Below, one piece after another: positions 3,236-64,000 of a stretch of 64,000 bases of DNA; position 1 is the stretch's first letter; each line of letters opens with the position of its first letter. The position numbers were made by a program, and so were the translations under genes. Under the pieces are notes generated by a model. The model did not search any database. It was not told where the DNA came from and saw nothing but the letters and a program-made list of their open reading frames with translations. Source of the stretch: Planctomycetota bacterium (lineage in GTDB: Bacteria; Planctomycetota; GCA-002687715; CAIWVZ01); NCBI GenBank assembly GCA_044222185.1, contig JBGANV010000001.1, forward strand, positions 1,184,001 to 1,248,000, in the 5' to 3' direction.

Positions 3236-3323
3236 GGCTTCAAACTTGCGCTCGATTGCCGGATTCGGGGCAACGCTACCACGGCCGCGCGGCGGTCCCA
3301 GGCGTGCGTTCGGACCCATGTGG

Positions 3324-8230: not shown

Positions 8231-8254
8231 GGTTCGAAGCGCTCCCCCAGAAAC

Positions 8255-9628
8255 ATGGCCGAGAGTACCACCCCACCCGAGGCACCCCCAGAGATCACGG
8301 CGCGTGCGCGCAGCCGTGCGCTCGTCGCGGTCCTCATCGGCGTCACCGCGTTCTGGTTCGTGCACCGCACGCAATGGAGTTCGGCCTGGTCGAGCGCCGA
8401 GGCGTCCTTCGTGCACCACGCCTTCCGGGCAACCGGGCTCGTCCCTGGCCCGGCCCTCCCGTCGACGGCGACGCCCGCGCAGGCAGCCACGCTCGGGTAC
8501 GTGATGTATCTCGTGGGAGCGACGCCGGAGACGCTCCGAGGGTTCATGCTGTTCGTCCTCCTGGTTCTCGCCGCAGCCACGCTCGAGGGCCTTCGTCGTT
8601 GCGGCATCGCCGTCGCCATCGTCGTGCTTGGTTGGATCCTGGCGTCCCGCGAGATCGTCGAAGTCGATTTCGTCTCTCCGATGTGGATCGCCGCCGCGCT
8701 GGTCGGCGTCGCACGGCTCGCCTCCGCCGACGAGTCCGAATGGTCAGCGGGCCGCGCCGCGGTTGGAATCCTCGGCGCTGCGGCTCTCGCGAGTTTCTCA
8801 CCTGGAGCCGCGGTCTGTCTCGCAGCCGTGCTGATCGTGGACGCGACGACGACGCGGGCCGCGCGCGCCCGGATCACCACGGCGGTCGCCGCCGCCGTTT
8901 GCGGCGGACTGGCATTCGCCATCGACCGTGACGTGGTCAGCCGACTTCGATTCGACCCGGTGGCGACCACCGGATGGCACGCGATGCCATCGCTTCCGTG
9001 GTTGCCAAAGCCGTTCGAATGGGTCGCCCTTGCCGTTCTGGGGTGCTTGGGTGCAGCCTCGATCGTGTTCGTTCCGACGGCGGACCGGCGACGGGCGGTC
9101 GGTCGCGTGGTGTGCCTGGCACTGATCGGCGGGTGCGCGCCGTTCCTGGCGCCTTCGTCGCGTGATGCGATCATCGCTCCGGTGTGGCTCGCCGCGATCG
9201 CAGCTCTCGTCGGCGCGTGCGCGTCCAACGCACCGCGCGCCATCGCGTGGGGGCTGGCGATCCTCGTGCTCGGCTGTCACGTGCAACTCGTACGCGACCC
9301 GCCGCCACCGAAAGATCGTCCCGACGCAGTCCTCGTGCTCGAGTCTGCCCGTGCCTCGCGGCTGCCGGCGTCGGGTTTGGTCGTGAGCGGGGACCTGAGA
9401 GTCGCGGTCGCCGTCGCCGCGAGAACGGGCCACAATCCCGGGATCCCTGTCGTACTGGTCCCGGAAGACGCCGAGCCCGGTGGACTGGCCGGGGTTTGCC
9501 GCCAGCTCGGACTCCAACGCGTTTGGTTCGTTCCGCCGCCGGAAACGGCTCCGCCGGAGCTGATCGCCACCCCGAGCCCCGTGCGGGGCCCGCCCAATGC
9601 CGCACATTTCGTCGTAGGCCCCAGGTGA
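8255..9628 (+). CDS. Polytopic membrane protein of unknown function (possibly GT-C-like)
   Basis: About 10 hydrophobic segments followed by a soluble C-terminal region; no diagnostic motif recognised. Confidence 0.6.
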   Translation: MAESTTPPEAPPEITARARSRALVAVLIGVTAFWFVHRTQWSSAWSSAEASFVHHAFRATGLVPGPALPSTATPAQAATLGYVMYLVGATPETLRGFMLFVLLVLAAATLEGLRRCGIAVAIVVLGWILASREIVEVDFVSPMWIAAALVGVARLASADESEWSAGRAAVGILGAAALASFSPGAAVCLAAVLIVDATTTRAARARITTAVAAAVCGGLAFAIDRDVVSRLRFDPVATTGWHAMPSLPWLPKPFEWVALAVLGCLGAASIVFVPTADRRRAVGRVVCLALIGGCAPFLAPSSRDAIIAPVWLAAIAALVGACASNAPRAIAWGLAILVLGCHVQLVRDPPPPKDRPDAVLVLESARASRLPASGLVVSGDLRVAVAVAARTGHNPGIPVVLVPEDAEPGGLAGVCRQLGLQRVWFVPPPETAPPELIATPSPVRGPPNAAHFVVGPR

Positions 9629-9724
9629 GTCGCCGAGTTTTCGAGGCGCTGATAGCATTTCGCCCGTTTCAATCGACTAATGACGTCGCGGCTGGCCCAC
9701 GCCCCGCGACTTGAGAGGTACCGC

Positions 9725-10831
9725 ATGCGAACTCTTGCCTTCGTTCTCGTCTGGCTCGCCGCCGGCGCGAATCTCCTCGCCCAGAAAACCGAAGCGCCGC
9801 AGGCCGCTGACCCGTCCCTGGCCGCACTGAAGTTCCTCGTCATGGAACACGACTTCGAGAAGATCACGGACGAGAAGTCCGTCGCATTCTCGTTCACGTT
9901 CGTGAACACCTCCGACAAGCTCACCGTCAACGTGCGAAACGTCCAGAGCACGTGCGGTTGCACGGCGGCTGACCTCGGCAAGCGGGTCTACGCCCCCGGC
10001 GAGCGTGGCCAGATCGACGTGACGTTCAACCCGACGGGCAAGCACGGTCGCGAACAGAAGTCGATCTTCGTGGACACGGACGATCCACGCGCCCCGCGCC
10101 TCGAGCTCAAGATCATGGCGACGGTGATCCAGCGGATCCGCGTCGAGCCGGCATCGCTGTGGTTCGGCGAGGTCCGGTACGACAACGTGATCGGCACGAT
10201 CAGCCCGAAGCGCATCCAGATCACCACGACCGTTCCCGACTTCCAAGTGAAGGGCGTCACCGTCGAGGACAAACGCTTCGCCGTGCGAACGCTCAAGACC
10301 GACCAGGTCGAAAAGGCCGGCGAGAAGGCCACGCGCACCACCTACGAGATCTCGGTGGATGAGAACCTTCCGATCGGTCGCATCCAGACGCAGGGGACGT
10401 TCGAGACGAACGACGCAAAGCAACCCAAGATCGCATTCACCATCCTGCTCGACGCCGTCGGCGACCTCCGGGTCACGCCGGAGCGCATGTTCATCCAGAC
10501 CCGGAGTGCGAGCGAGGCGTTTGCGCAAGACACGACTCTCGTCCACCGCGACAACGGAGAGTTCAAGGTCACGGGGGCGACGGTCGTCAACGCCGAGAAC
10601 AAGGAGTTCGCGGGAATGAAGGCGGAGATCACGCCGCTCAATCCCACGCACACCTCCATGTGGCGCGTGAAGCTCACCGGGACGGGTCCGACGACTGCCG
10701 GCCAGCAGTTCTCGGGCACGCTGAAGATCACGACGGACTCCCCGCTCCAGCCGAACGTCGACGTCCCGTTCACGGGCATGCTCGTGGTCCAGCAGCCCGT
10801 GCCGCCCGCCGTCCCCACCACGAGCAAGTGA
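9725..10831 (+). CDS. Secreted DUF1573 (Ig-like) domain protein
   Basis: Signal peptide MRTLAFVLVWLAAGANLLA; HDF...FTFVN...STCGCT...PGERGQI motif followed by further beta-rich domains. Confidence 0.85.
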   Translation: MRTLAFVLVWLAAGANLLAQKTEAPQAADPSLAALKFLVMEHDFEKITDEKSVAFSFTFVNTSDKLTVNVRNVQSTCGCTAADLGKRVYAPGERGQIDVTFNPTGKHGREQKSIFVDTDDPRAPRLELKIMATVIQRIRVEPASLWFGEVRYDNVIGTISPKRIQITTTVPDFQVKGVTVEDKRFAVRTLKTDQVEKAGEKATRTTYEISVDENLPIGRIQTQGTFETNDAKQPKIAFTILLDAVGDLRVTPERMFIQTRSASEAFAQDTTLVHRDNGEFKVTGATVVNAENKEFAGMKAEITPLNPTHTSMWRVKLTGTGPTTAGQQFSGTLKITTDSPLQPNVDVPFTGMLVVQQPVPPAVPTTSK

Positions 10832-10837
10832 CCTGAG

Positions 10838-11401
10838 ATGATCCGCGGCGCCATCATCATCGTCGTTGCGGGGGTGGCCGTCGGCTGGATTCACTCGACG
10901 CTCGCGCCAGTGGACCTGGGCTTCCGTGCGCCACGGCCAACCGGAGCCCCAGCCGAATCCCGGGCCAACGCACCCGGCGCCATGGCGGTTCCGCCGGTAT
11001 CGGCGACCCGCCATACGGATCCGCCTCAGGTCCCTGAATCCGGTTCCAGTCTTCCGCGCGCGACGCGTGGTGACGGTTTCATCGGAATCCTCGAGGCCAA
11101 GCAGCACTTGGACGCAGGCACAGCGTTCTTCGTGGACGCCCGCCTCGAGAAGGACTACGTGGCCGGCCACATCCCGGGGGCATTTTCCTGCCCGCCGGAG
11201 AAGTTCTACGCCGGGGCGTTTCCCGACATCGTGAACATGCTCCCCCGCACGAGCACGCTCGTGGTTTACTGCGGCGGTGGTGACTGCGACGCATCCATCC
11301 TCGTGGCCAAGCGCCTCACCGAATTCGGCTTTGCATCCGTGCTCGTCTGCGAGCAGGGATTTTCGGGCTGGACGGCGGCAGGGTTGGCTGTCCAGCGGTA
11401 G
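10838..11401 (+). CDS. Membrane-anchored rhodanese-like domain protein
   Basis: FVDAR, YVAGHIPGA, VYCGGGDCDAS, GFSGW motifs; N-terminal hydrophobic segment. Confidence 0.88.
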   Translation: MIRGAIIIVVAGVAVGWIHSTLAPVDLGFRAPRPTGAPAESRANAPGAMAVPPVSATRHTDPPQVPESGSSLPRATRGDGFIGILEAKQHLDAGTAFFVDARLEKDYVAGHIPGAFSCPPEKFYAGAFPDIVNMLPRTSTLVVYCGGGDCDASILVAKRLTEFGFASVLVCEQGFSGWTAAGLAVQR

Positions 11402-11689
11402 GAGGATGCTTCGGATCTCCGCCCGCCTGGTCCGGGTGTGCGATCGACATTCGGCCGCAATCGACGCCCCGCAGGCCACCAGGCGTGACGTTGCTCCGCG
11501 ATCTGGAACGGAGTTTCCTCGAGGCGGTCGCTCCGACCTGCTTGCAGGCGGCGACATGCAAACCGTAGACTGCCGGCGCCGTAGCGTCGGAGTCCGCCCA
11601 TGTTGGGCGTTCCCCGCCTTCCGCCGACACCGCTTCAGGCGTGTCGGGCTCTCTGCTTGACCCCTACAGTCCCCTCTTTGGAGTTTCAT

Positions 11690-13444
11690 GTGAAGTCAAC
11701 CTGGGCACTATCCATCGCCGCCGCCGTCCTGATCATGTCGAGCGCCACAGCGCAGCTCGCATTCAGCTCGAGCATCGCGGGCACGTTCGACGACATCCAA
11801 TTCAGCGGTGGAACCTCGCTGGGAACGGCCTCCGACGACTCGGAGCACAACTTCACCGCGACGATCGGCAACGCACTCTTACCCGCAGGACCCGTTCGCG
11901 TCGGCAACAACGGCGCTGCGGTGTGGGGCATCACGACCGGTGACGTCGGGTTCACGAACGCGGCGATCCCGGCGACCGGCCTTCCGAGCGGCATCCCCTC
12001 CGGCGGCGACAGCGCCCTCCTTCCGTGGTGGGACGATCTCTTCCCGAGCACGGCCCAGACCGGCGCGCTCACCCTGTGGTTCAAGGAAGACGTGCCGAAC
12101 GGCGTGCTCACGATCATGTGGAAGAACGAGGACCACTTCAGCGCCACGGGGACGGGGACGATCACCGTCGAACTGAAGGTCTTCGCCACTGGACCGGTCT
12201 TCGCTCAGTTCCTCTACCCGGACGCCGAGTTCACCGGTCCGCCGACGTTGGCGGCCCAAGACCGCGCCGGCAGCGCGACGATCGGCTACATCAAGGGCTC
12301 GAACGCATCGGCTTGCCCCACGACGGCGAACCTGCAGTTCAGCTTCAACCAGCAGGTGATCCAGAACGGCACCGTGCTCAGCCTCGTCCAGGCCCCGGGC
12401 TTCGGCGCCAGCGCCACCGCAACGCCGAGCGGCCTCAACGCCGGCTCGTCGACGCTCGTCTCGTTGAATCTCGGCTGCGGCGCCCTCTTCCCGGCCACCG
12501 CGACTGCCGACATCTCGAGCCTCGTCGGATCGCCGACGACCGTTCCCATGAACGACAACGGCGGCGGCAACTTCTCCGTGGTCGTCGGCGTTCCCCTCGG
12601 CACGCCCCCGGGCAACTACGCGGTCCCGATCAGCGCCACCGACAGCACGCCGTTCACTGCGAACACGTCGGTCACGATCTCGGTGCGCCCGGACAACGAT
12701 GACTGCGCCAACGCCATCGCGATCGCGGACGGCCCGACGACGGGAACGAACGTCAACGCGACGACCCAAGCCGGTCTGCCGACGAGCCTCTGCGCGTCTG
12801 GCCCGCTCGAGGTCTGGTACACCTACACGAACCCGCTGGCGTGCGCCGAGACGGTCACGGCGTCCCTCTGCGGCGGAGCCACGTTCGACACGGTCATTCG
12901 GATCTACTCCGGCACGTGTGGCTCCTTCACCAACGTCGCGTGCAATGACGACTTCTGCGCCCTCCAGTCGCAGTTGACGTTCACGGCCGCGCCGCTCACG
13001 ACCTACTACGTCGCGGTCGGATCGTTCTCGACCACCACCGGGCCGTTCACGCTGACGATGACCAGCCACACCGCAGTCTCCCAGCAGTTCGGCACGGCTT
13101 GCGGCACGCTCCCGCCGGCCTTGAACGGGACCGTCCCCTTCCTCGGCCAGAACGGCACGCTGTCGATCACGGGCGCCGACGCGAACGCCCCCGGGATCAT
13201 CTTCGCCGCTCCCCCGGGCGGCGCTCCGACCCCGCTCGGCGGGACCTGCAACCTCTACCTCCAGCAGGGTGGTCTCGTTCTGTTCCTCCTCGCGAACACG
13301 GACGCCCTTGGCGCGTGGAGCTTCACGGGCCTGATCCCGAACGACCCGCTCCTCGACTGCTTCCCGCTCGACCTCCAGGCGATCATGCTTGGCAGCGGCG
13401 GCTTCGCGGCCAGCAATGGGTTGCACCTGGTGCTCGGTCACTGA
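11690..13444 (+). CDS. Secreted multidomain beta-rich surface protein (nidogen-like, Ig-like, PPC-like and C-terminal domains)
   Basis: GGAG RBS then GTG 11690; signal peptide; LPWWDDL; NDDCANA..EVWY..FDTV..CNDD..YYVAVG module; Thr/Gly/Asn-rich. Confidence 0.85.
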   Translation: MKSTWALSIAAAVLIMSSATAQLAFSSSIAGTFDDIQFSGGTSLGTASDDSEHNFTATIGNALLPAGPVRVGNNGAAVWGITTGDVGFTNAAIPATGLPSGIPSGGDSALLPWWDDLFPSTAQTGALTLWFKEDVPNGVLTIMWKNEDHFSATGTGTITVELKVFATGPVFAQFLYPDAEFTGPPTLAAQDRAGSATIGYIKGSNASACPTTANLQFSFNQQVIQNGTVLSLVQAPGFGASATATPSGLNAGSSTLVSLNLGCGALFPATATADISSLVGSPTTVPMNDNGGGNFSVVVGVPLGTPPGNYAVPISATDSTPFTANTSVTISVRPDNDDCANAIAIADGPTTGTNVNATTQAGLPTSLCASGPLEVWYTYTNPLACAETVTASLCGGATFDTVIRIYSGTCGSFTNVACNDDFCALQSQLTFTAAPLTTYYVAVGSFSTTTGPFTLTMTSHTAVSQQFGTACGTLPPALNGTVPFLGQNGTLSITGADANAPGIIFAAPPGGAPTPLGGTCNLYLQQGGLVLFLLANTDALGAWSFTGLIPNDPLLDCFPLDLQAIMLGSGGFAASNGLHLVLGH

Positions 13445-51300: not shown

Positions 51301-53454
51301 TCACTTGACGAGGTCGATGGTGACCTTCTCGCGCGCCATGCGGAGGATGTTCGCACGGGTCTGCGGAGCGATCGGGGCGATGCCTGCGGCCTGCGCCAGC
51401 ATCGTCATGAACTCGTTGGACCCGCCGGCGCGGACCGAATCCCAGAGCGCGTTCTTCGCGTCCTCGGTCACGGTTCCCGCCGCGCGGCCGATGCGCGCGA
51501 GCGCCACGCACGCCGCGCCACGGAGCGGCTCGGCCGCAGTCGTGTCACGGACGAGCTCGACGAGGCCCGCAACCGCCGCCGGATCACCGATGTTGCCGAG
51601 GGCGGCGATCGCCGGTCCACGGACGCGATCATCACCCTTCAGCGTCGACAGCAGGGCGCTCGTCGCGCCGGATGCAGCGAGGACTCCGCCGCGCGGGTCC
51701 ATCTTCGCGAGTGCCGAAGCGGCCGCCGCGGCCGTCAACGTCGCGGCTTCGCGACCGGCATCGAGGCTCGTCACGAGAGCGCGGAGAGCCGGCTCGTACG
51801 CATCGCCGACGGGCGGCGTGTTGATCCAGCCCTGCACCTTGCCTTCGTACTGCGCCTTGGCGGCTTCCGCATCGGCTGCATCGACGATCATGACGACGGG
51901 CGTCTTCTCGGTGCGCGGGTCGCGACGGATCGCCGCGAGCACTTCCGAGACGTGGGTGCCACCGCCCAGGTTGTACCGGACGACGACGATGTCCTCGATC
52001 GGGTACTCGCGCAGGCGCGCGACACCGACCGCACCGTTGTCCACACCCGCCGCGAAGTAGTGCTTCGCGTTCAGGTCCGCCGCAATGCGGTTCCGCGTGT
52101 CGGCGTTGTCGTCGATGACGAGGACGTTGCGCACGGCATCCTGGCCGAGGGCTTCGGCGAGCGCCGGAACGACCTGGTCGCTGCCCGGGAACGCGCTGCG
52201 CGGCCCGATGCCTGCAACCGCAAGGGCCGCCGCAAAGCGAACCGCCTTGTGCGGTGCCGCGAGCGCCATCGCCATGCCCGACGACTGGGGCAGGGTGTCG
52301 ACACTCAGGAGACCGCCGAGGAGCTTCACCGCAGCCGCAGCCACGTCGGAGCGGCCATCGGCCATGGCCTTGGCAATGACCTTGTCCAGGATCGCCGGGC
52401 CACCGACGTTTGCGATCATCCGAGCAGCACCTGTCGCGGCTGCCACCGGCGCCTCGTCTCCCTCGGCCTTGAGGTCGCGGCCGAACTCGGCCTCGGCCAG
52501 CAGCACCGACGTCAGGGCGACGACGCCGTCCTCGTTCGTCGGGTCGAGCGCGAGGAGGTCGTAGAGAGCCGTCTCGGCGAGCTTCAGGTGGTAGAGGTCG
52601 CGCGGGACTTCGCGGGCGACGAGGTTCGAGCTGTCGCCGTCCTTCACGAAGGCCCAGACCGGATACTGCGTCCGGTACGGATTCACGACGGCGGAGTCGC
52701 GCTTGTAGAAGCGGTCGGCGAGTTCGAGGAACTTGGCGGCGTAGCCGGAGTTCGACGCGCCGATCTTCCCGAGAGCCTCCGACGCGGCGGACTTCACGCT
52801 CGGCTCCGCATCGCGCTCGGCGGCTGCGGCGAGGTACGGAACGCCGCGGACGTCCTTCAGGAGTCCGAGCATCGTGGCCGCGTTCATGCGCGTGATCGTG
52901 TCGTCAGCCTTCAGCACCTGCGTGAGCGGAAGCGCGGCATCCGAACCGAGCTTGCGGATCCACAACATCGCGGTCACGCGACGCTCGGTCTCGCTCGCGC
53001 CGAGCTCGCGCCACAGCTGCGCCACCGCATAATCGCCGTGATTCGCGGCCAGGGTGACGAGCGCCTTCTCGCGCGCGGCGAAATCGCCGGTTCGCGCGTC
53101 GTCCAGGAGCTTCTTGATGGCCTCCTGGTCCGCGGTCTTCGCCATGGCGGCCGGGCGGGCGCGCTTGAAGAGGGCCTCGACCGCAGCCGCGATCTGGCCG
53201 TTCTGAACCTGGAGGCGCGCCCATTGGGCCGCATCCAGCGAGTTGCGAAGCGTGTAGGCGTCCTCGGCTGACGGGTCTTTTGCAAGAACCTCGTTGAGCT
53301 TCGTGAGCGCTTCGTCGTTGTGGCCGCGCTCCATGGCCGAGTAGGCCTGCTTCAGTGCCTCCGCCGGGTCCTGCGCGACCAACGCGCTGGGCGCAACAAC
53401 GAAGAGGACCAGCGCAAAAACGGTGGTCGTCGAAAGCGATCCCCGCTGAGTCAT
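51301..53454 (-). CDS. Secreted HEAT-repeat protein with embedded receiver-like domain
   Basis: Signal peptide ending ALVA-QDP; HEAT repeats; NVLVIDDN..DIVVVRY..DPRTEKTPVVMI segment; start ATG 53454. Confidence 0.82.
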   Translation of the reverse strand: MTQRGSLSTTTVFALVLFVVAPSALVAQDPAEALKQAYSAMERGHNDEALTKLNEVLAKDPSAEDAYTLRNSLDAAQWARLQVQNGQIAAAVEALFKRARPAAMAKTADQEAIKKLLDDARTGDFAAREKALVTLAANHGDYAVAQLWRELGASETERRVTAMLWIRKLGSDAALPLTQVLKADDTITRMNAATMLGLLKDVRGVPYLAAAAERDAEPSVKSAASEALGKIGASNSGYAAKFLELADRFYKRDSAVVNPYRTQYPVWAFVKDGDSSNLVAREVPRDLYHLKLAETALYDLLALDPTNEDGVVALTSVLLAEAEFGRDLKAEGDEAPVAAATGAARMIANVGGPAILDKVIAKAMADGRSDVAAAAVKLLGGLLSVDTLPQSSGMAMALAAPHKAVRFAAALAVAGIGPRSAFPGSDQVVPALAEALGQDAVRNVLVIDDNADTRNRIAADLNAKHYFAAGVDNGAVGVARLREYPIEDIVVVRYNLGGGTHVSEVLAAIRRDPRTEKTPVVMIVDAADAEAAKAQYEGKVQGWINTPPVGDAYEPALRALVTSLDAGREAATLTAAAAASALAKMDPRGGVLAASGATSALLSTLKGDDRVRGPAIAALGNIGDPAAVAGLVELVRDTTAAEPLRGAACVALARIGRAAGTVTEDAKNALWDSVRAGGSNEFMTMLAQAAGIAPIAPQTRANILRMAREKVTIDLVK

Positions 53455-53579
53455 CGACAGTTTCTCCAGTTCCAAGATGCCGATTCCGATCTTTTTTCCC
53501 GCATGTCGCCCGCGCTCCCGGCTCCGATCACGAAGCCGGTTCTCCGTTGACGGGCGCAGACATCTCACGATGGGGCGAC

Positions 53580-53607
53580 ATTTTAGGACCGCGCAACAAA
53601 GAGTCAA
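53580..53607 (-). promoter_or_regulatory. Putative sigma70 promoter of the HEAT/receiver gene
   Basis: Minus strand TTGACT-N16-TAAAAT in an AT-richer intergenic stretch. Confidence 0.6.
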
Positions 53608-54870: not shown

Positions 54871-56226
54871 GTGTCAAAAGTCCTGATCGTCGATGACGAG
54901 AAGCCGATCCGCGACGCGGTGCGGATGATCCTGAAGTACGAGTCCATGGAGTGCGTCGATGCGGGTGACGCCCGATCGGCGCTGAAGCTCGTGGACGAGG
55001 ACCAGGAGATCGGAGTCGTTCTCTGCGACGTGAAGATGCCCGGCATGGACGGGCTCGAGTGCCTGGAAGCGATCAAGTCACGCCGGCCGGGGCTTCCGGT
55101 CATCATGGTTTCAGGACACGGCACCGTCGAAACGGCCGTCGAGGCCACGCGGAAGGGTGCCTTCGACTTCATCGAGAAGCCGCTCTCGCGCGATCGCCTG
55201 CTACTGACGCTGCGCAACGCCGCCGGAACCGAGAGCCTGCGGCGCGCGAACGAAACGCTTCGCGAGGAGCTGGCCGCCAGATTCAAGATCCTGGGCTCCT
55301 CCCCGCCGATCGTCGCCCTGCGCGAGACCATCAAGCGCGTGGCGCCGTCCGACGCCCGAGTCCTCATCACCGGTGAGCACGGGACCGGCAAGGAACTCGT
55401 CGCGCGCAACCTCCACCTGCTCTCGGCCCGCCACAACGAGCCGTTCGTCGACGTCAACTGCGCGGCGATTCCGAAGGAGCTCATCGAAAGCGAGTTGTTC
55501 GGCCACGAGAAGGGCGCGTTCACCGGCGCCGACAAGCAGAAGATCGGCACGTTCGAGCAAGCGAACGGTGGGACCATGTTCCTCGACGAGATCGGAGACA
55601 TGGACCTGGCGGCACAGGCAAAACTTCTGCGCGTGCTCGAGGAGAGCAAGGTTCAGCGCGTGGGCGGCGGCGCCCCGATCCCCGTCAACGTGCGACTCAT
55701 CGCCGCGACGAACAAGGATCTGGAGAAGGAAGCGAGCGAGAACACCTTCCGGGAAGACCTCTTCTACCGGCTGAACGTGATTCCCATAAAAGTCCCGCCC
55801 CTGCGGGAGCGGACCGAGGACATTCCTGAGATCTTCCAGCGGTACTTCGGGGACTACTGCCGCCGGTACCAGCGCGCGGGTCTCAAGCTCGAACCCGGGG
55901 TCATCGAAGAGCTGAAGCGCCTCCCCTGGCCCGGAAACGTCCGGGAGTTGCGCAATTTCGCCGAGCGGCTCGCGCTGCTGGGACCGGACCCGGCCATCAC
56001 GGTCGACACCGTCCGCCAGCTGGCCACGGTCAGAACGGCGTCCGACACCGACGTCTTCGCACTCGACAACTTCGAGGCCTTCAAGAACGCAGCCGAACAC
56101 GCCTACCTCGCGCGCAAGCTTCAGGAAAACGGCTGGAACATCAAACAGACGGCCGAGCGGCTCGGCATGCAGCGCAGCAACCTCTACAAGAAGATCGAGC
56201 GATACGACCTTCGTGGACCCGAGTGA
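54871..56226 (+). CDS. Sigma54-dependent response regulator (NtrC/NtrX family)
   Basis: Receiver (IVDDE, CDVKMP, EKP), GEHGTGKE, ESELFGHEKGAFTGA, FLDEIGDM, WPGNVREL.N, Fis-type HTH. Confidence 0.95.
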   Translation: MSKVLIVDDEKPIRDAVRMILKYESMECVDAGDARSALKLVDEDQEIGVVLCDVKMPGMDGLECLEAIKSRRPGLPVIMVSGHGTVETAVEATRKGAFDFIEKPLSRDRLLLTLRNAAGTESLRRANETLREELAARFKILGSSPPIVALRETIKRVAPSDARVLITGEHGTGKELVARNLHLLSARHNEPFVDVNCAAIPKELIESELFGHEKGAFTGADKQKIGTFEQANGGTMFLDEIGDMDLAAQAKLLRVLEESKVQRVGGGAPIPVNVRLIAATNKDLEKEASENTFREDLFYRLNVIPIKVPPLRERTEDIPEIFQRYFGDYCRRYQRAGLKLEPGVIEELKRLPWPGNVRELRNFAERLALLGPDPAITVDTVRQLATVRTASDTDVFALDNFEAFKNAAEHAYLARKLQENGWNIKQTAERLGMQRSNLYKKIERYDLRGPE

Positions 56227-56292
56227 GGTCGGACCACGTACGAAGCGTTGCCAAAAAACTCCGTGACGCCTTGTCGCCGGCCGGGGGCGGGC

Positions 56293-56301
56293 TGATATAC
56301 T
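56293..56301 (+). promoter_or_regulatory. Extended -10 promoter element for the barrel/TPR/ExbBD operon
   Basis: TGaTATACT about 60 nt upstream of ATG 56364. Confidence 0.45.
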
Positions 56302-56363
56302 GCCGCCCGCGATCCTCACCCCGCCAGGTGATCGCATTTCTTGGTCGGCCCCTGGAGTCTTAG

Positions 56364-58001
56364 ATGAACGAAGGCCACGAGCAGGCCCCCGTCCAGCATT
56401 CGCTTTCGGAGATCCTGCAAGACCACACGACCTTCGAGGACCGTGTTCAAAACATGGCACGAGGCGCACCGGTCCTGGTGATCGCCATCATCGTGCACGT
56501 CATCCTTGGCCTCGTACTCGGCATGGTCTACTTCCACGAGAAGGAGAAGGCCGCCGAAGCCGAGCACATGGACGTCGGTCAGGCGAACGCGATCGATACG
56601 ACCAAGATCGAGGAAAAGGCTGACGCGCCGAAGGAGATCGAGCGCACGGCCATCCCACAGGTCGACGAGAACGCGGTCACGGACGTCACGAACGATGACA
56701 GCTTCAACACTGTCACCGACGACACCGTGAACCCGTACGCACAGAACAACGAGCGCTTCGGCGTGTCCGAAGGCGTCGACGACGCGCCGGACAACCTGCT
56801 CACCATGAGCAGCGGCGGCAAGGGCCTCGCTGGCGCCATCGGCGTTGGCAACAGCGGCTCGGGCGCCGGTGGTGGTGCTCGCAAGGGCAGCCCGTTCGGT
56901 GGATCGCGTGTCAGCCGGCGCAACGCACAGTCGGCCCAGCTCCAGCAGACCGAGAAGGTCGTCATGGCCGGTCTCGAGTGGCTGAAGCGGCACCAGAGCC
57001 CGGACGGAAGCTGGGACTGCGACAACTTCGCCTCGAACTGCGACTCGAAGCTCGGGCCAGCGTGCTCGGGTCGCGGTCAGGCAACTTTCGACGCCGGTGT
57101 GTCCGGCCTCGCGCTCCTCGCCTTCCTCGGTGCCGGCTACGACAGCCAGCGGCCGGGCCCGTACCTCGAGACCGTGAAGAACGGGCTCAAGTACCTGAAG
57201 GGCATCCAGGACGCCCAGGGCTGCTTCGGCTCCCAGGGCGACTCGCGATTCACGTACGCGCATGCCTGCGCCACGCTGGCGATGTGCGAAGCGTACGCGT
57301 CGAGCAAGCAAGTTCCCTGGAAGCGCTCGGCGCAGAGCGGCGTCGACTTCATCAACCAGTGCCAGAACCCATACAAGGCGTGGCGCTACGGCATCAAGCC
57401 GGGCGACAACGACTCGTCGGTGACGGGCTGGATGCTCATGGCCCTGAAGTCGGCGAAGGATGCCGGCCTCCAGGTCAACGAGCGCACGATGAAGGACGGC
57501 CTCGCGTTCGTCGACTCGATGACGGACGAGGACACAGGGCGAACCGGGTACACGAAGAAGGGCGAGCCGCCCGTGCGTCCGGAAGGCGCGCAGGCCAAGT
57601 GGCCGGCTTCGGAGTCCGAAGCGCTGACCGCAGTGGCCATGTGCTCGCGCATCTTCACCGGGGCCGCCGACGGCAACCCGATGATGAAAGCTGGAGCCGA
57701 CCTGTTGTCGAAGCACCTGCCGGTCTGGAACGAAGCCAGCGGGTCGATCGACATGTACTACTGGTACTACGGCACGCTCGCCATGTTCCAGATGGGTGGC
57801 AACGACTGGGAGCGCTGGAACAAGGCGCTCAAGACCGTCGTCATCGACAACCAGGTCAAGGATGGCTGCACGAAGGGAAGCTGGGAACCGAAGGACCCGT
57901 GGTGCGATGAAGGCGGTCGAATCTACGCGACGGCCCTCATGACGCTCTGCCTCGAGGTCTACTACCGCTACCCCAAGGTGTTCGGCGCCACGAAGAAGTG
58001 A
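56364..58001 (+). CDS. Membrane-anchored prenyltransferase/squalene-oxidase-repeat (alpha/alpha barrel) protein with TonB-like N-terminus
   Basis: TM helix IAIIVHVILGLVLG, acidic/Gly-rich linker, repeats WLKRHQSPDGSW, YLKGIQ..QGCF, YYWYYGTLA.FQ, YATA...L.LEVYYRY. Confidence 0.88.
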   Translation: MNEGHEQAPVQHSLSEILQDHTTFEDRVQNMARGAPVLVIAIIVHVILGLVLGMVYFHEKEKAAEAEHMDVGQANAIDTTKIEEKADAPKEIERTAIPQVDENAVTDVTNDDSFNTVTDDTVNPYAQNNERFGVSEGVDDAPDNLLTMSSGGKGLAGAIGVGNSGSGAGGGARKGSPFGGSRVSRRNAQSAQLQQTEKVVMAGLEWLKRHQSPDGSWDCDNFASNCDSKLGPACSGRGQATFDAGVSGLALLAFLGAGYDSQRPGPYLETVKNGLKYLKGIQDAQGCFGSQGDSRFTYAHACATLAMCEAYASSKQVPWKRSAQSGVDFINQCQNPYKAWRYGIKPGDNDSSVTGWMLMALKSAKDAGLQVNERTMKDGLAFVDSMTDEDTGRTGYTKKGEPPVRPEGAQAKWPASESEALTAVAMCSRIFTGAADGNPMMKAGADLLSKHLPVWNEASGSIDMYYWYYGTLAMFQMGGNDWERWNKALKTVVIDNQVKDGCTKGSWEPKDPWCDEGGRIYATALMTLCLEVYYRYPKVFGATKK

Positions 58002-58066
58002 GCGCGGCTGTCGGTTCTCGCCCTGCCAGGAACTAATCACCCCCACGGCGCTTCGTGGGGTAAGGG

Positions 58067-60925
58067 ATGTTTCTCATGCGATTCGCGTCCGGTGTGATTG
58101 CATCGGCGGCCGTCCTGATATTGACGTCCGCTTCGCCGGCCCAGCACGGGACGGCACGTGACTACAAAGACTTTGCGAAGGCCCTCTCCGAGAACACCTA
58201 CTTCGACCTCGCCAAGGAGGTCGTGAACGAAGGACTCGGCGCCCTACAGGGCGGGGACGACAAGGCGATCCTCGAATACGCGCTGTGCGAGATCTCGGCC
58301 AATGAGGCCTTTCGCACGCCCAAGCCCGAGGAGCGCCAGAAGAACCTCGAAGGCGCGACCAAGGCCTACGAGGACTACCTCAAGAAGTACCCGAGCAGCC
58401 CGGTCCTTTCCGAGGCGCGCTACCAGATCTCCGAGCTGCTTCGCAGCGCCGGCGAAGCCGTCGCGCGGCAGCTGAAGGACGAGAAGGACGCGACGAAGAA
58501 GGACCAGCTTCGCGAGAAGGGGCTGAACTACTTCACGAAGGCCGAGGCGTTCGCCACGCAGCGCGTGGAAGAGCTGAAGGCGAAGCAGAACAAGTCCGAC
58601 ATCGAGAAGGACGAGTTCAAGGCGCTCCGCTTCGCGATCCCGGTCATCGCCTATTCGAAGGTCACGCTGTACGACGATCGCAACAGCCTCAACGCGCAGG
58701 TCGCGTTGAAGGCGGCCAAGGAAGGGTTCGAGGACTTCGACCTGGAGTACACGGGCGAGCTCCTCTCCTTCGAGGCGCGCCGCTACCTCTTCCTCATCGC
58801 CGTCGACGAGAAGCGGAACGACGAGGCCGAAGAGCTCATCGCCTTCTCGTGCGACCAGCTCGCCGAGGCCGCGCAGAACCAGCCTGAGATCCTTCAGGAC
58901 GAGTCGACGCGCGACGTCATGATCTCCAACTTCCACGACATGGCGCAGTTCCTCACGCAGACGAAGGCGCCGCCCGAAGGCAAGAAGGCCATCGAGCGCG
59001 TCGAGACGCTGCTGAAGGCCATCCCCCGCCTCATCACGATCCGCGAGGGTCGCGAGTGTCTGCTCATCCTCGCCCGCGCCTATGCAGCCGAGGGCCAGGC
59101 GGACAAAGGCAAGAAGCTCGCGGACGACATCTTCAAGGCGGATCCGTCGGGCCCGACGAGCGCTGCCGCGGATGAATTGCGCAAGGGTGGCAAGGGATTC
59201 GCCACGAGCGGTGGCGGTGACCTCTCGACGATCCTCGTCCAGCTCCAGGGATGCGTTGAGCGCAAGGACACCGCGACGGCCGAGAAACTGCTCGGCCAGG
59301 TGTTCGCGCGCGACGTGACCAAGGCGAAGATCGATGACCTCGCCGAGGCGCTCTTCCTCGGAGCGAGCACGTACTTCGAACGCGGCAACTACGTCGACGC
59401 GTCCGTGTGCTTCGGGCTGATCGTCGAGAACTACCCGCAAACGAAGCGCGCTCCCCCGGCCGCGAGCAACGCCGCCATGGCGTACGGCCGCATGGCCGGC
59501 ATCGAGAAGAAGAACGGCTCGGGCTTCGAGTTCTGGAAGAACAAGAACAAGGAAGCCATCGCCGATCTGATCCGCCGCTATCCGCAATCGCCGGAAGCCG
59601 CGGGCGTCACCTTCTTCGCCGCACTCGACGCCGAAGCCGAGGGCAAGTTGCCGGAGGCGATCGACCTCTTCGGCAAGGTCCCGGGCGGCAACGTGAATTA
59701 CCCCGAGGCGCAGTTCCGCATCGGTAAGTGCGCGACCGACATCGCGACACAAGCCGAGAACCGCGATCAGAAGGACGAAGCCAAGAAGCGCTTCACGCAA
59801 GCCGTTTCAGGCTTCGAGAACGCCATCACTTCGTACGCAAAGTCCGCGGCCGACACGCTGAACAAGGCGGACATCGCCAAGGCGCGACGCGGCAAGACGG
59901 ACTCCCAGCTCATGCTGAGCCAGATCTACCTGCGTGACGACTTCAAGCAGGTCGACAAGGCGCTGGGACTCCTCGACAACGCGGAAGCGGACAACAAGGA
60001 CGACAAGAACAAGGTCGCCCAGATCTGGAACTTCCGCGTCCGCGCCTTCGTGAAGCAGGGCCAGGGCACCAAGGCCGCCGACCTCTTCAAGCAGTGGTTG
60101 AAGCAGCAGACCGACGCCGGCGCCGTCGCCCCGACCGCCATCAGCGTCGCAGCGGCCGTCGACAAGGAGGCTGGCGAAAAGGTCAAGGCGAACGACAAGT
60201 CGGCCAACGAGCTGTACCGAACCGCAGCCGAGATGTACACGCTCGCCATCGACTCGGCGGGCAGGGGCGGTACGGCGAAGGTGGATTGGTCGCAGGTCGG
60301 TGGTCGTCTCCTGGCCATCGCCGGGCGTCTGTCGGGCCTCCCCGACGATCTCTCGCTGTCGAACATCGACCCCAACGCGAAGCTCGCGGAACAGGCGATG
60401 ATCGAGAAGGCGAAGAAGGCCTACGACTTCGCCAGCGAGGACAAGACCGGCACCGTCAACGTGGAGCGGCTGAGAAACACGGCCCGTTGCCGCGCGCTCA
60501 CGGGCGACTGGATCGGCGCGATCAGCGCGTTGACCGACATCACGACCAAGCAGCCGCTCTTCATGCAGGACGGGAAGCTCGACGCGGAACGCCTCAAGCA
60601 GAATCCGTCGCTCCCCGCCATCAACCTGGACCTCGCGGTCGCCTACATTCGCGCCGGCAAGTCGGACAAGAGCCAGTACTCGTCGGCTTCCGACATCGCG
60701 AGGAACCTGATCGCCAACTCCGAGCAAGGCAAGAAGATGTACTGGGAGGCCAGGTACCTCTACCTGCTGGCCATGCTCGAATCGGGCAACGTCTCCGAAC
60801 TCGACGGCGCGCTCGACTCGCTCGAGAGAACCAACCCGGAGGCGGACAAGAACGAGTACGGCATCAAGGCGAAGATCGACCAGATCCGCGCCATCCGGAA
60901 CAAGAAAGCAGTCATCACGAAGTAG
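58067..60925 (+). CDS. Large periplasmic TPR-repeat protein
   Basis: Signal peptide; many helical repeats with YP.S and A.Y/F..G patterns. Confidence 0.85.
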   Translation: MFLMRFASGVIASAAVLILTSASPAQHGTARDYKDFAKALSENTYFDLAKEVVNEGLGALQGGDDKAILEYALCEISANEAFRTPKPEERQKNLEGATKAYEDYLKKYPSSPVLSEARYQISELLRSAGEAVARQLKDEKDATKKDQLREKGLNYFTKAEAFATQRVEELKAKQNKSDIEKDEFKALRFAIPVIAYSKVTLYDDRNSLNAQVALKAAKEGFEDFDLEYTGELLSFEARRYLFLIAVDEKRNDEAEELIAFSCDQLAEAAQNQPEILQDESTRDVMISNFHDMAQFLTQTKAPPEGKKAIERVETLLKAIPRLITIREGRECLLILARAYAAEGQADKGKKLADDIFKADPSGPTSAAADELRKGGKGFATSGGGDLSTILVQLQGCVERKDTATAEKLLGQVFARDVTKAKIDDLAEALFLGASTYFERGNYVDASVCFGLIVENYPQTKRAPPAASNAAMAYGRMAGIEKKNGSGFEFWKNKNKEAIADLIRRYPQSPEAAGVTFFAALDAEAEGKLPEAIDLFGKVPGGNVNYPEAQFRIGKCATDIATQAENRDQKDEAKKRFTQAVSGFENAITSYAKSAADTLNKADIAKARRGKTDSQLMLSQIYLRDDFKQVDKALGLLDNAEADNKDDKNKVAQIWNFRVRAFVKQGQGTKAADLFKQWLKQQTDAGAVAPTAISVAAAVDKEAGEKVKANDKSANELYRTAAEMYTLAIDSAGRGGTAKVDWSQVGGRLLAIAGRLSGLPDDLSLSNIDPNAKLAEQAMIEKAKKAYDFASEDKTGTVNVERLRNTARCRALTGDWIGAISALTDITTKQPLFMQDGKLDAERLKQNPSLPAINLDLAVAYIRAGKSDKSQYSSASDIARNLIANSEQGKKMYWEARYLYLLAMLESGNVSELDGALDSLERTNPEADKNEYGIKAKIDQIRAIRNKKAVITK

Positions 60926-60967
60926 GCAGGTCGCTGAACACGACCTCCAGCACGAGGAATCAGAACG

Positions 60968-62086
60968 ATGAACGTTCGTGGCTTCAATCAACTCATGATC
61001 GCGATGGCGCTCGTGACGCTCTCGAGCCGGGTATTCGCTCAGAACGACACGATCACCCTCAAGGACAACTCGACGAAACAGGGCACCGTCCAGGAATGGG
61101 ACTACCGCGGCGTGAAGGTCGCGGTCGGCGGATCCGGGACGACGACGATCAAGGCCGATGACGTGCTCGGCGTCGAATTCGCGGCAGCCCCGAAGGACTT
61201 CAAGGAAGGCAAGGACGACCTCGCCGGCGGGAAGTTCGACGAGGCGGTCGCCAAGTTCCAGGCACTCATCGACAACGCGAAGGCCCGTGCGGCGATCCGT
61301 CAGGAGTCGCACTGGTACAAGGCGCAGGCCTTGAAGGGCTCTGGCAAGAACGACGAGAGCGTGGCCGCAATGAAGGCCATGATCGCCGACGGTCAGTTCC
61401 CGTCGTCGCACTACCTGGAGCAGATCCACGACCTCGTCCCCACCATGCTGGCGCAGGCTGGCAAAGGTGCGGAGGCCATCACCTTCATCGAGGGTGAGGA
61501 GTCCCGGATCAACAAGCTTCCCGAATCGGGCGGGCTGCTCGAGGGCCTGAAGCTCGGCCGCGCGCGCGCCTACCTCGCATCGAACGACCTGGCGAAGGCC
61601 AAGTCCGAGGCAACTGCGCTCGCTGCGACGACTGGGGCCCGCGCCTCGGAGGCCAAGGTCATGCTCGGCACCATCGCGCTGGCCGAGAAGAACCCGACCG
61701 AGGCCGAGAAGCTCTTCCGCGACGCCCTGAAGGTCGTGACCCGCTCCCGCGAGCGGGCTGCCTGCTACAACGGCCTCGGCGCCGTTCTCCAGCAGCGCGG
61801 CAAGGAGACGAGCAAGCCCGACCTCCTCCGCGAGGCCCTCCTCAACTACCTCCGCACGGCCCTGATGTTCGCGCCCGCCCCCGGAGAACCGACTGGCGAG
61901 CACGAGAACGGGCTCTACAATGCCGCCAACTGCTTCCAACTGCTGGGGGACGTGTCGAGCGACAAGGACGTACAGAAGCGCAACTACGGTCGAGCGGTCG
62001 AGATGTACCGCCGTTTCGTCGCAGAGTATCCGCAGTCCCCACTCAAGGCCGACGCGCAGTCGCGCCTCTCCAAGCTCGGCGGTTGA
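60968..62086 (+). CDS. Periplasmic protein with N-terminal small beta domain (DTITLKD..QG.V) and TPR repeats
   Basis: Signal peptide; EALLNYLR, YPQS C-terminal CpoB/BamD-like TPR. Confidence 0.85.
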   Translation: MNVRGFNQLMIAMALVTLSSRVFAQNDTITLKDNSTKQGTVQEWDYRGVKVAVGGSGTTTIKADDVLGVEFAAAPKDFKEGKDDLAGGKFDEAVAKFQALIDNAKARAAIRQESHWYKAQALKGSGKNDESVAAMKAMIADGQFPSSHYLEQIHDLVPTMLAQAGKGAEAITFIEGEESRINKLPESGGLLEGLKLGRARAYLASNDLAKAKSEATALAATTGARASEAKVMLGTIALAEKNPTEAEKLFRDALKVVTRSRERAACYNGLGAVLQQRGKETSKPDLLREALLNYLRTALMFAPAPGEPTGEHENGLYNAANCFQLLGDVSSDKDVQKRNYGRAVEMYRRFVAEYPQSPLKADAQSRLSKLGG

Positions 62087-62136
62087 TCGAGCGAACACCC
62101 ATACAGGAACTCTCATTCTCAGGAGCAACCGGAACC

Positions 62137-62853
62137 ATGAAGCACCGATTCGCGATGATGTGTCTCGTCACTGTGCTGTTCGCCGGAGCCGTCGCGGCCC
62201 CGGCACTCGCCGCTGAGGAAGCGACCGGCAAGCACAAGAGCGTCCTCGAACTGTTCGAGACCACTGGCTGGGTCGGTTGGTTGATGGTCGCCACGTCCAT
62301 CATCGGCACCGTGCTCTGCATCCAGAACGTCGTCGAGATCCGGATGGACAAGCTCGCTCCGCCGGACCTGACGAAGGAGATCGAAGACGCCATCAACGAG
62401 GGCGACCTCGATCGCGCGCTCGACGTCGCCATGTCGAGCCGTTGCTACTTCGGCCAGATCATGGGCGGCGGGCTCATGCTGAAGGAAGCCGGCTACGAGC
62501 AGATGGTGAACGGCATGGAGCAGGTGGCCGCCGAAGAGGCGTTCAAGCTCAACGCCAAGATCTCCAACCTCTCCCTCATCGGAAACGTCGCCCCGCTGCT
62601 CGGACTCCTCGGAACGGTGACGGGAATGATCTCGTCGTTCCAGGTCATCGCGCAGAAGGCCGCCCCGACGCCTGCCGACCTCGCGTCGGGCGTGTACGAG
62701 TCGCTCGTCAACACGACCATGGGTCTGTTTCTCGCCATCGTCTTCCTCACGCTGTTCTTCTTCATGAACAACCGCGTCAAGAAGATGTCGCTGAACTGCA
62801 ACCTGATGGCCGTCGAAATGCTCAAGAACACGGGCCTTCACAAGCACGCCTGA
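62137..62853 (+). CDS. exbB: MotA/TolQ/ExbB proton channel protein
   Basis: IGNVAPLLGLLGTVTGMI.SF, LASG..ESL.NT.MGL..AI; AGGAG RBS; signal-like N-terminus. Confidence 0.93.
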   Translation: MKHRFAMMCLVTVLFAGAVAAPALAAEEATGKHKSVLELFETTGWVGWLMVATSIIGTVLCIQNVVEIRMDKLAPPDLTKEIEDAINEGDLDRALDVAMSSRCYFGQIMGGGLMLKEAGYEQMVNGMEQVAAEEAFKLNAKISNLSLIGNVAPLLGLLGTVTGMISSFQVIAQKAAPTPADLASGVYESLVNTTMGLFLAIVFLTLFFFMNNRVKKMSLNCNLMAVEMLKNTGLHKHA

Positions 62854-62874
62854 TCGCAGGCGTGGGAGCCATCC

Positions 62875-63441
62875 ATGGCGTTTCATGACATCGAAGTCGA
62901 GCAGGACGTGGCGCCGAACCTGGTGCCGATGGTCGACATCATGTTCCTGCTGCTCCTCTTCTTCATGCTCAACGCTGACATGAGTCAGCGTGAGCTGGAG
63001 GAGATCGTTCCGCCCGTCGCGAAGGCCGCTCAGGAGGACAAGCCGAATGCGGGTGACACCTTCCGCATCACGGTCAACATCCACCATCTGAGCGAGGCCC
63101 AGGGGTCAACCTGCGCGATCCACAAGATCGGGCAGGTCTGCCGCGACGACGGTCACTGGCGCATCGCGGTTTCCGGTCGCTCCTACGAGTTCAACGCGGA
63201 AGGCCAGAAGCGGCTCGTTCAGCACCTGACCGAGCTCGCTCGCAAGGGCAAGACGAACCCGAACGACCCGAACTCGATCTCGGAGACCAAGATGCTGGTG
63301 CGTGCCGACCGGTTGGCCCCCTACGGGTACATCCAGAAGGCGATGGAGGCTGCGGCATTCGCCAAGCTCTACAAGATCGAAGTCGGGGCGGGAATCCCGA
63401 AAGAGGTCTTGAACGAGCGTGCCGCCGCGCAGCCGAAGTGA
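62875..63441 (+). CDS. exbD: ExbD/TolR family protein
   Basis: NLVPMVDIMFLLLLFFM with conserved TM Asp; VRAD...PYG. Confidence 0.93.
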   Translation: MAFHDIEVEQDVAPNLVPMVDIMFLLLLFFMLNADMSQRELEEIVPPVAKAAQEDKPNAGDTFRITVNIHHLSEAQGSTCAIHKIGQVCRDDGHWRIAVSGRSYEFNAEGQKRLVQHLTELARKGKTNPNDPNSISETKMLVRADRLAPYGYIQKAMEAAAFAKLYKIEVGAGIPKEVLNERAAAQPK

Positions 63442-63646
63442 CGCCGACGGGCGCGGGGTTCGAGCCCCGTGCCCGCGCGACCCGTGGTGACGAATCGAGC
63501 CACTTGACGCGTTCCGGCGCGTCGACAGTGGTGACACAAACAACCTGCTGCATGAGGACTGCGGCCCCCGGGGCCAGGCCGTGAGTCCAACACGGGATCA
63601 CCCGCGCGAGCGGGCGAAACCGTGACAACTGTCGAGGAGACGTGAC

Positions 63647-64000
63647 ATGGCTGGTTCTACCGGCAAAGACAATCCGGTCGGCATCAACGTGACGCCGCTC
63701 GTGGACATCATCTTCTGCCTGTGCCTCTTCTTCATGTGCTCGCTCAAGTTCAAGCCACTTGACGGCAAGATGGACTCCTGGCTGCCGAAGGACAAAGGTC
63801 CCGGCCCGGCAACCGCGAACCCGACGCTCGACGAGATCCGCGTGGTGTTGTCGTTCAGCTCGGAGAAGAACCAGCTCGAGCGGTTCTTCGGACAGCGCCC
63901 GATCGAGAGCGGCGAGAAGGGTGACGCCCTCCTCGCCAAGCTGATCAAGGACCAGTACACCTCGTACCAGTCCCTCGGGAAAACGGACATCCCGGTGATC
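63647..64000 (+). CDS. exbD: Second ExbD/TolR family protein, runs off window edge
   Basis: Not in the ORF track. GAGGAG RBS, ATG 63647, MAGSTGKDNPVGINVTPLVDIIFCLCLFFM. Confidence 0.9.
   Translation, partial: MAGSTGKDNPVGINVTPLVDIIFCLCLFFMCSLKFKPLDGKMDSWLPKDKGPGPATANPTLDEIRVVLSFSSEKNQLERFFGQRPIESGEKGDALLAKLIKDQYTSYQSLGKTDIPVI

Follow-up and report, generated by a model that had tools for sequence, protein, structure and literature searches.

What does an ExbB-ExbD motor drive when the genes beside it encode neither a TonB nor a TolA? The question is raised by one end of the window, the 64,000-nucleotide stretch of a Planctomycetota genome (contig JBGANV010000001.1, positions 1,184,001 to 1,248,000) analyzed here, in which six co-directional open reading frames (ORFs), separated by short gaps, run on the plus strand from base 56364 to the window end. 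They encode a 545-amino-acid protein ending in an (alpha/alpha)6 barrel, two tetratricopeptide repeat (TPR) proteins of 952 and 372 amino acids, an ExbB, and two ExbD paralogs. These gene labels come from an original prediction, made from the sequence alone, and were all confirmed by the ORFs and by Pfam and NCBIfam searches. The genome comprises 7.08 Mb in 16 contigs and is 93.8% complete, and its DNA past base 64000 was read as well. The answer favored here, with somewhat more belief than doubt, is that the operon encodes a Ton/Tol-type machine powered by the proton motive force, in which ExbB and the two ExbD proteins drive a barrel-headed, TonB/TolA-like transducer. Coupling of the barrel protein to the motor is supported by the conservation of a motif in its transmembrane (TM) helix, by repeated gene linkage, by domain fusions, and by the architecture of the protein.

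The 545-amino-acid candidate force transducer (56364..58001; SQHop_cyclase_C, 1e-6) consists of a short N-terminal tail, a TM helix, a linker, and the barrel. Its TM helix (residues 35-57; 56466..56534), defined from sequence and alignment, reads Pro36 ... Ala41-Ile-Ile-Val-His45 ... Leu52, that is, an AIIVH core within A41-x3-H45-x6-L52. According to PMC12215075, the corresponding helix of E. coli TonB shows a Pro-Trp together with the pattern S-x3-H-x6-L-x3-S, and the motif Ser and His contact a Ser and a Trp in TM1 of a single ExbB/TolQ subunit, with a conserved TM3 Pro behind. The helix in the window, Ala-x3-His-x6-Leu-x3-Tyr, keeps the His and the Leu and has both Ser positions changed. 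In an alignment of 32 sequences, Pro36 never varies and His45 is conserved to at least 90%. Of the 120 top homologs close in length to the 545-amino-acid protein, 98 have P-x(4-6)-[SA]xxxH in the N-terminal TM helix (66 with Ser, 32 with Ala); 65 of these carriers have Leu at His+7 and 16 have Ser at His+11, and many Ser-type members show the complete S-x3-H-x6-L-x3-S after Pro-Trp. The 22 homologs that lack the motif are mostly N-terminally cut fragments, signal-peptide forms, or fusion forms. A His-bearing TM helix was read in the sequence of no other protein of the operon.

Is a helix of this kind repeatedly found beside motor genes? TonB_C and the TonB-dependent receptor are each matched exactly once in this genome, and both matches lie together with an ExbB on another contig in a canonical receptor-ExbB-ExbD-TonB locus; the genome also holds six MotA/ExbB-family matches and twelve barrel-matching regions (tblastn). 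A second motor locus (L077, G000:C15:362001-376000, 4741-12701, minus strand) has the order TPR (1062 amino acids)-ExbB-ExbD-P0121, followed by a subtilase with P-domains. In P0121 (1229 amino acids), a PD40 propeller like that of TolB is combined with an SLLVH-bearing TM helix, several hundred residues of low-complexity linker, and the barrel; the same locus type is found in genome G022 (L087). In addition, a 690-amino-acid exported protein (L078, G000:C7:551001-565000, 5519-7591, minus strand) fuses ExbD-like periplasmic domains to the barrel and itself lacks a TM helix with the Asp; a similar fusion of ExbD-type domains to the barrel is seen in public proteins P0034 and P0135.

In other genomes, the full operon is present at locus L003, and G022, which belongs to a different family and has no TonB_C match, carries all eight genes in unchanged order: a barrel protein (SVAVH), two TPR proteins, ExbB, two ExbD, a two-TM protein, and a Zn-ribbon protein. 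Partial versions read barrel-TPR-TPR-ExbD (L016 and L055, with the Zn-ribbon gene next in L055) or barrel-TPR-TPR-Zn-ribbon without a motor gene (L054). Altogether, the 952-amino-acid TPR protein is kept beside the barrel gene in L002, L003, L004, L016, L054, L055, and L086, and the 372-amino-acid one in L003, L016, L054, L055, and L086. A third arrangement occurs in G043 (L085, G043:C1:1052001-1068000, 2275-11171), where the genes run TPR-ExbB-ExbD-ExbD-(161 amino acids)-PBP2-type transpeptidase-ExbD-barrel protein, the latter with SIGVH; the transpeptidase in this one genome hints at a link to peptidoglycan synthesis. In each of the five TonB_C-less genomes that were checked (G043, G070, G003, G118, and G022; completeness 99-100% in four), less than 3 kb separates the top-scoring ExbD gene from a barrel gene. 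When 151 genomes sampled evenly across the phylum were searched, 133 proved to hold the barrel family (E at most 1e-30), as a rule in several copies, 149 to hold ExbD, and 111 to hold TonB_C; among the genomes listed, 18 of the 20 without TonB_C have a barrel match.

The ExbB/TolQ-type stator subunit (62083..62853; MotA_ExbB, 2.8e-25) reaches 88.9 bits with PF01618 against a cut-off of 22.9, while TolQ and ExbB equivalog models are matched far below their cut-offs. Translation probably starts at ATG 62137 rather than TTG 62083, with a signal-peptide-like leader. Thr178 and Thr211 are invariant in an alignment of 50 sequences, and Ser72 in TM1 and Pro197 in TM3, which belong to the contact set described for TonB (PMC12215075), are conserved. 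The first ExbD/TolR paralog (188 amino acids; 62875..63441; ExbD, 5.6e-16) is followed by a second that is cut by the window end (63647..64000; ExbD, 1.8e-6), whose full gene encodes 156 amino acids, ends at window-equivalent 64117, and improves to 2.7e-13 when completed. Both have an Asp in the TM helix and exceed the PF02472 cut-off of 25.4 bits (59.2 and 50.5). A complex prediction with four copies of ExbB residues 45-256 and residues 20-80 of the barrel protein, both given alignments, returned ipSAE values of 0.01 and 0.01 against a mark of 0.32; as an open four-subunit ring lacking ExbD, run without controls, this is not the native target and counts neither for nor against binding. The two TPR proteins (58067..60925, Pfam TPR families, signal-peptide-like N-terminus; and 60968..62086, Pfam and NCBIfam TPR, signal-peptide-like start) appear to be exported, and show weak, partial matches to YbgF/CpoB and BamD that are far below cut-offs (YbgF/CpoB, 5e-11 for the 952-amino-acid protein).

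With a single ExbB and a pair of distinct ExbD paralogs, both of which have the TM Asp, the motor recalls the Agl/Glt system, which likewise pairs one TolQ-like with two TolR-like subunits. The operon could thus encode a motor for surface motility or surface transport, with the barrel and TPR proteins belonging to a track across the envelope instead of a puller of the Tol/Ton type, and in PMC12204202 gliding is raised as one idea for vWA-headed relatives found in the same gene context. The 12 kb downstream, however, hold no Glt-like outer-membrane or TonB_C-type partner genes, and the presence of the barrel family in most of the sampled genomes points to a general function. Its neighbors elsewhere are, moreover, genes of envelope housekeeping, namely a SurA-like isomerase (12 of 75 loci) and, once, the PBP2-type transpeptidase. 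A motility or transport motor of the Agl/Glt kind is therefore considered improbable.

Might the partner of the motor instead lie downstream? The operon runs beyond base 64000 into at least two further conserved genes. Three ORFs follow the second ExbD gene, each either overlapping slightly with the one before or separated from it by no more than 24 bases (locus L001, whose coordinates plus 56000 are window coordinates): a 293-amino-acid two-TM protein (8142-9023), a 528-amino-acid protein with Zn-ribbon, TM, coiled-coil, and beta-sandwich regions (9020-10606), and a 343-amino-acid TM protein (10608-11639). Pfam returned nothing for the first and third even at E 0.1. The 12 frames scanned beyond base 64000 contain no TonB_C, TolA, TolB, or receptor gene, in keeping with the original prediction, which had seen none in the visible part and had named a canonical TonB or TolA directly downstream as an outcome that would contradict it. 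The 293-amino-acid and Zn-ribbon proteins are kept in L003 and L086 and accompany the operon in G022, and the Zn-ribbon protein is also present in L054 and L055. Its C-terminal domain models as a beta sandwich (predicted local distance difference test, pLDDT, 80) whose closest structural counterparts are "putative glycosyl hydrolases" of the DUF1080 type (4jqt, Z 13.6; 3imm, 13.2; 3hbk, 12.8), followed by carbohydrate-binding modules, sialidase lectin domains, and PL7 lyases. An Atlas search with the Zn-ribbon protein gave leads below 0.9, which were then checked by fold. In P0103, this lectin-like domain, at 40% identity to the copy in the operon, is fused to the barrel. Such an association could mean that one of the three downstream membrane proteins is the true partner of the motor, with the barrel protein serving it as cargo or target in the periplasm. 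A His-containing SHLS-like motif is, however, missing from the TM helices of all three, whereas the barrel proteins have one, including those of the two other locus types, where these downstream genes are missing. A downstream partner is accordingly judged improbable as well.

The rest of the 545-amino-acid protein fits a transducer in its layout. In an AlphaFold2 model built on 32 homologs, a helix spans residues 35-67, pLDDT falls below 50 over residues 69-182, and an all-helical domain occupies residues 182-540 with pLDDT mostly above 90. A single TM helix with a His, an acidic and Gly-rich linker, and an (alpha/alpha)6 barrel had been foreseen in the original prediction, and both the sequence and the model bear this out. 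The putatively disordered linker (residues 68-182; 56565..56909; 115 residues) contains 17 Gly, 12 Asp, 7 Glu, and 5 Pro, and ends just before the barrel in a conserved Gly/Arg-rich stretch in which G160 does not vary and G162, G165, and G175 hardly do. When the barrel (56910..57983) was compared with 48,161 chains in an unfiltered VIA-align structure search, class II terpene cyclases came first (8paj, Z 27.5, root-mean-square deviation 2.9, 291 residues aligned; 8zg0, 26.6; squalene-hopene cyclase 1gsz, 26.4; oxidosqualene cyclase 1w6k, 24.3), with sugar epimerases and GH76 mannanases close behind at about 24. Foldseek against the PDB gave generic (alpha/alpha)6 matches alone (E about 1e-5). 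The modeled fold can thus be assigned with confidence to (alpha/alpha)6 barrels of the terpene-cyclase/prenyltransferase kind, while the margin over epimerases and mannanases is too small for a function to be named from it.

Sequence comparisons also lead to the cyclases, at a distance. A profile search of the sequences of solved structures returned squalene-hopene cyclase alone (1.4e-8), with alignments that slide between the internal repeats, so that the position equivalent to DxDD is not assignable in the barrel. Cyclase models score far below their cut-offs (TIGR01787, 31.8 bits against 322.7; TIGR01507, 28.3 against 431.1). The absence of a DxDD cyclase motif, noted earlier, holds: no D.DD string occurs in the 545-amino-acid protein, the nearest being DNDSS at 348-352, and any D.DD within the last 365 residues is found in only 6 of the 120 homologs. 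An Atlas search with the barrel protein gave unnamed Planctomycetota clusters alone. As for location, some paralogs and homologs have a cleavable signal peptide and no TM anchor (L081, 422 amino acids; P0033, P0064, and P0115), and the barrel of the window protein holds 11 Cys; on these sequence features the barrel would lie outside the cytoplasm, presumably in the periplasm. At one homolog locus (L012, 11812-15084), a bacterial alpha-2-macroglobulin gene lies directly downstream of the barrel gene. The thioester domain of alpha-2-macroglobulin is itself an (alpha/alpha)6 toroid. A link of the barrel to hopanoid transport was also considered and set aside; the accessible part of PMC12324291 makes no mention of TonB or ExbB.

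How far do these results carry the transducer reading? A number of observations tell against it and are best weighed together. In the helix, the first motif position is Ala instead of Ser and the fourth is Tyr; the TM His is absent from four full-length homologs of one subclade (P0009, P0016, P0019, and P0027) and from the barrel protein of L004, though this one lies beside a large TPR gene. The predicted conservation of the His thus stands for the bulk of the family and fails in these members. In ExbB, a Thr lies four positions past Ser72, where the E. coli Trp contacts the TonB His; this replacement is not diagnostic, since the TonB-linked ExbB of this same genome has a Leu there. The linker, with 5 Pro in 115 residues, is not Pro-rich. 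Linkage is also uneven: among 75 homolog loci fetched from the genomes of other species, many of them on short contigs, 69 have no TPR or ExbB/ExbD gene within the DNA examined, a large TPR gene adjoins the barrel gene in 6, and ExbB was found in 1 and ExbD in 3, whereas 25 lie near mfd and 12 near a SurA-like isomerase. Genes for TonB are often unlinked from exbBD, too. Even so, motor linkage is a property of some clades and not of the barrel family. Finally, the barrel is a promiscuous module, so its presence alone implies no motor: in 120 longer proteins it is combined with vWA/VIT (36), PD40 (29), Ser/Thr kinases (12), HEAT repeats (9), or BlaR1-type M56 proteases (2), and an [SA]xxxH helix is present in 37 of these proteins. 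That kinases and BlaR1-like sensors carry the barrel as their outer domain suggests recognition of a ligand common in the envelope.

Many polar and aromatic residues of the barrel are highly conserved, which would fit an enzyme as well. The 545-amino-acid protein could, in that case, be an enzyme or binding protein of the periplasm, anchored in the membrane and either active on glycans or binding terpenoids, that is co-expressed with the motor and mechanically uncoupled from it; the TM helix would be a mere anchor, and force would be transmitted by some other component or by none. Dozens of invariant polar and aromatic barrel residues do suggest an active or ligand site, and sugar epimerases and mannanases score close to the terpene cyclases at 26-27.5. 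The soluble signal-peptide forms, the lack of nearby motor genes at most homolog loci, and the barrels on the outside of kinases and BlaR1-like proteases point the same way. A plain anchor, however, would not be expected to keep Pro-x(4-6)-[SA]xxxH in 98 of 120 homologs, nor does it account for the recurrence of the motif-bearing helix beside ExbB-ExbD in three different gene arrangements, and the ExbD-barrel fusions point to physical closeness to the stator. An uncoupled enzyme is thus held to be unlikely.

On the preferred reading, that of a motor-driven transducer, the parts could work together as follows. The two ExbD paralogs would pair as a heterodimer, surrounded by a stator ring of ExbB, and the 545-amino-acid protein would dock outside ExbB through its TM helix (Ala41/His45/Leu52). 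The flexible linker of roughly 115 residues would span the periplasm, placing the C-terminal barrel so that it holds a target, and movement of the motor would pull or reposition what the barrel binds. The two exported TPR proteins may serve as periplasmic scaffolds, as CpoB does for Tol, and the Zn-ribbon/TM/coiled-coil protein with its lectin-like domain may be a further fixed component. The proposal that the barrel protein is the transducer of the motor thus gains from the motif, the linkage, the fusions, and the architecture; its further parts, namely force transduction, a TPR scaffold, and a role in secretion, polymer uptake, outer-membrane tethering, or motility, are carried forward as inference, as are docking and the ligand. 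The most likely target of the barrel is a glycan of the envelope or a component of the cell wall, and not a protein with a TonB box; the whole would in that case be a Tol-like device for envelope maintenance or polymer handling. We lean toward a cell-wall or glycan-related role because of the lectin-like fold, the glycan-active enzymes among the structural neighbors of the barrel, the weak CpoB-like TPR matches, the TolB-like propeller, and the transpeptidase in G043.

A broader proposal, for which there is only an outside chance, is that barrel-headed SHLS proteins, and not TonB, are the main clients of ExbB/ExbD in Planctomycetota. With TPR, TolB-like propeller, and lectin-like partners, they would constitute a phylum-specific replacement for Tol-Pal that grips and moves an envelope glycan, either cell wall or captured polysaccharide, by means of the proton motive force. 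If true, this would explain envelope upkeep or polymer import in bacteria that have no usual Tol-Pal and often no TonB. The more modest transducer reading would also have consequences. Barrel-headed proteins adjoin motors in genomes where no TonB domain was found, and the TonB/TolA TM helix would be a transferable motor plug, joined in the course of evolution to working ends of very different kinds. A very large family annotated as "prenyltransferase/squalene oxidase repeat" or "terpene cyclase/mutase family" would acquire a first role, and the poorly understood planctomycete envelope would gain a handle. For some planctomycetes, genetic tools are available.

Upstream of the barrel gene, and separated from it by 137 bp, lies a gene for a sigma-54-dependent response regulator with receiver, AAA+, and Fis helix-turn-helix domains (54871..56226, plus strand; Pfam Sigma54_activat, 1.3e-72; Response_reg, 1.1e-29). 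A homolog lies upstream of the barrel gene in L002 and L003 as well, and the protein encoded in the window is a possible regulator of the operon. No sigma-54 site (TGGCAC-N5-TTGC, at most 2 mismatches) occurs in 56227-56363, and the whole window has 37 matches against 46.7 expected. A scan of the operon, which was uninformative, gave no promoter-like site and 10 terminator-like sites against 10.4 expected, all on the minus strand. Further upstream, a 768-amino-acid exported HEAT-repeat protein with an embedded receiver-like domain is encoded at 51301-53607 on the minus strand; HEAT repeats are elsewhere one fusion partner of the barrel domain. Some 690 bp past the operon lies a gene (L001 12326-14923, window-equivalent 68326-70923) for an 865-amino-acid, lipoprotein-like product that contains a Big_5 domain and long stretches rich in Gly; contig C2 encodes two paralogs, about 50% identical to it. 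Still further downstream, about 143 kb from the operon and away from any ExbB match, three adjacent or overlapping frames match an iterated ExbD profile (L084, G000:C1:1386001-1398000, about 5000-7900). In other genomes, Ser-type barrel genes, often as tandem paralogs, lie downstream of mfd and the SurA-like peptidyl-prolyl isomerase (L005, L008, L011, and others).

To which of the known systems, then, does the 545-amino-acid protein belong? Its closest relatives in fold are class II terpene cyclases, which are its best structural matches (Z 24-27.5) and the sole Pfam/NCBIfam families matched, and with which it shares QxxDGSW-type repeats. Unlike these enzymes, it has one barrel instead of two, no DxDD, scores far below the cut-offs, and a predicted location outside the cytoplasmic membrane on a long tether. 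With the Tol-Pal system it shares a TM helix that resembles the TolA segment quoted in PMC12215075, an ExbB that scores best against TolQ models and ExbD proteins that score best against TolR models, all far below cut-off, TPR proteins with weak partial CpoB/YbgF matches, and a sister locus in which a TolB-like PD40 propeller is fused to the barrel. On the other hand, there is no TolA domain III, two ExbD paralogs take the place of one TolR, TolB_N gave no match in this genome at its 93.8% completeness, and no Pal/OmpA-family gene lies in or next to the operon. TonB is similar in its N-terminal TM helix with Pro, [S/A]xxxH, and Leu, its linkage to ExbB/ExbD, its periplasm-spanning linker, and the single transducer gene per motor operon. 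It differs in that the 545-amino-acid protein has no TonB_C (PF03544) and ends in an all-helical barrel, the linker is not rich in Pro, the operon has no TonB-dependent receptor, and the genome contains a separate canonical TonB locus.

The nearest parallel is a group of proteins from the Planctomycetes-Verrucomicrobia-Chlamydiae (PVC) bacteria, described in 2025, that combine an SHLS helix with a disordered linker and a vWA head, their function being untested (PMC12204202). They agree with the original prediction's remark that related PVC neighborhoods are known and uncharacterized. Like the protein in the window, they have an SHLS-type TM helix with a conserved His, a disordered linker, and a head other than that of TonB, and their PVC gene context of TPR, tolQ-like, and two different tolR-like genes is the same (PMC12204202). 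By contrast, the head here is an (alpha/alpha)6 barrel, no VWA family is matched by the 545-amino-acid protein, the transducer gene precedes the TPR and motor genes rather than following them, and a Zn-ribbon/lectin-like protein is added. No word starting with "prenyl" occurs in the text of that paper, and a literature search, with subscription journals outside its coverage, found no barrel-headed TonB-like protein, though the supplements of PMC12204202 may list such proteins. The two groups are tied together by P0152 and its relatives, in which an SHLS helix, the barrel, and a YfbK-type vWA domain occur in one chain. The 545-amino-acid protein falls outside the families of TonB, TolA, the vWA transducers, and the terpene cyclases, since it lacks a defining feature of each. 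It does possess the features of a TonB/TolA-like transducer in the wide sense, that is, a TM helix with a conserved His, a disordered linker, and a globular head, encoded beside ExbB/ExbD genes. The vWA domain was proposed in 2025 as the third type of head (PMC12204202), and the (alpha/alpha)6 barrel points to a fourth, on a protein that most likely works in the manner of TonB, TolA, and the vWA transducers.

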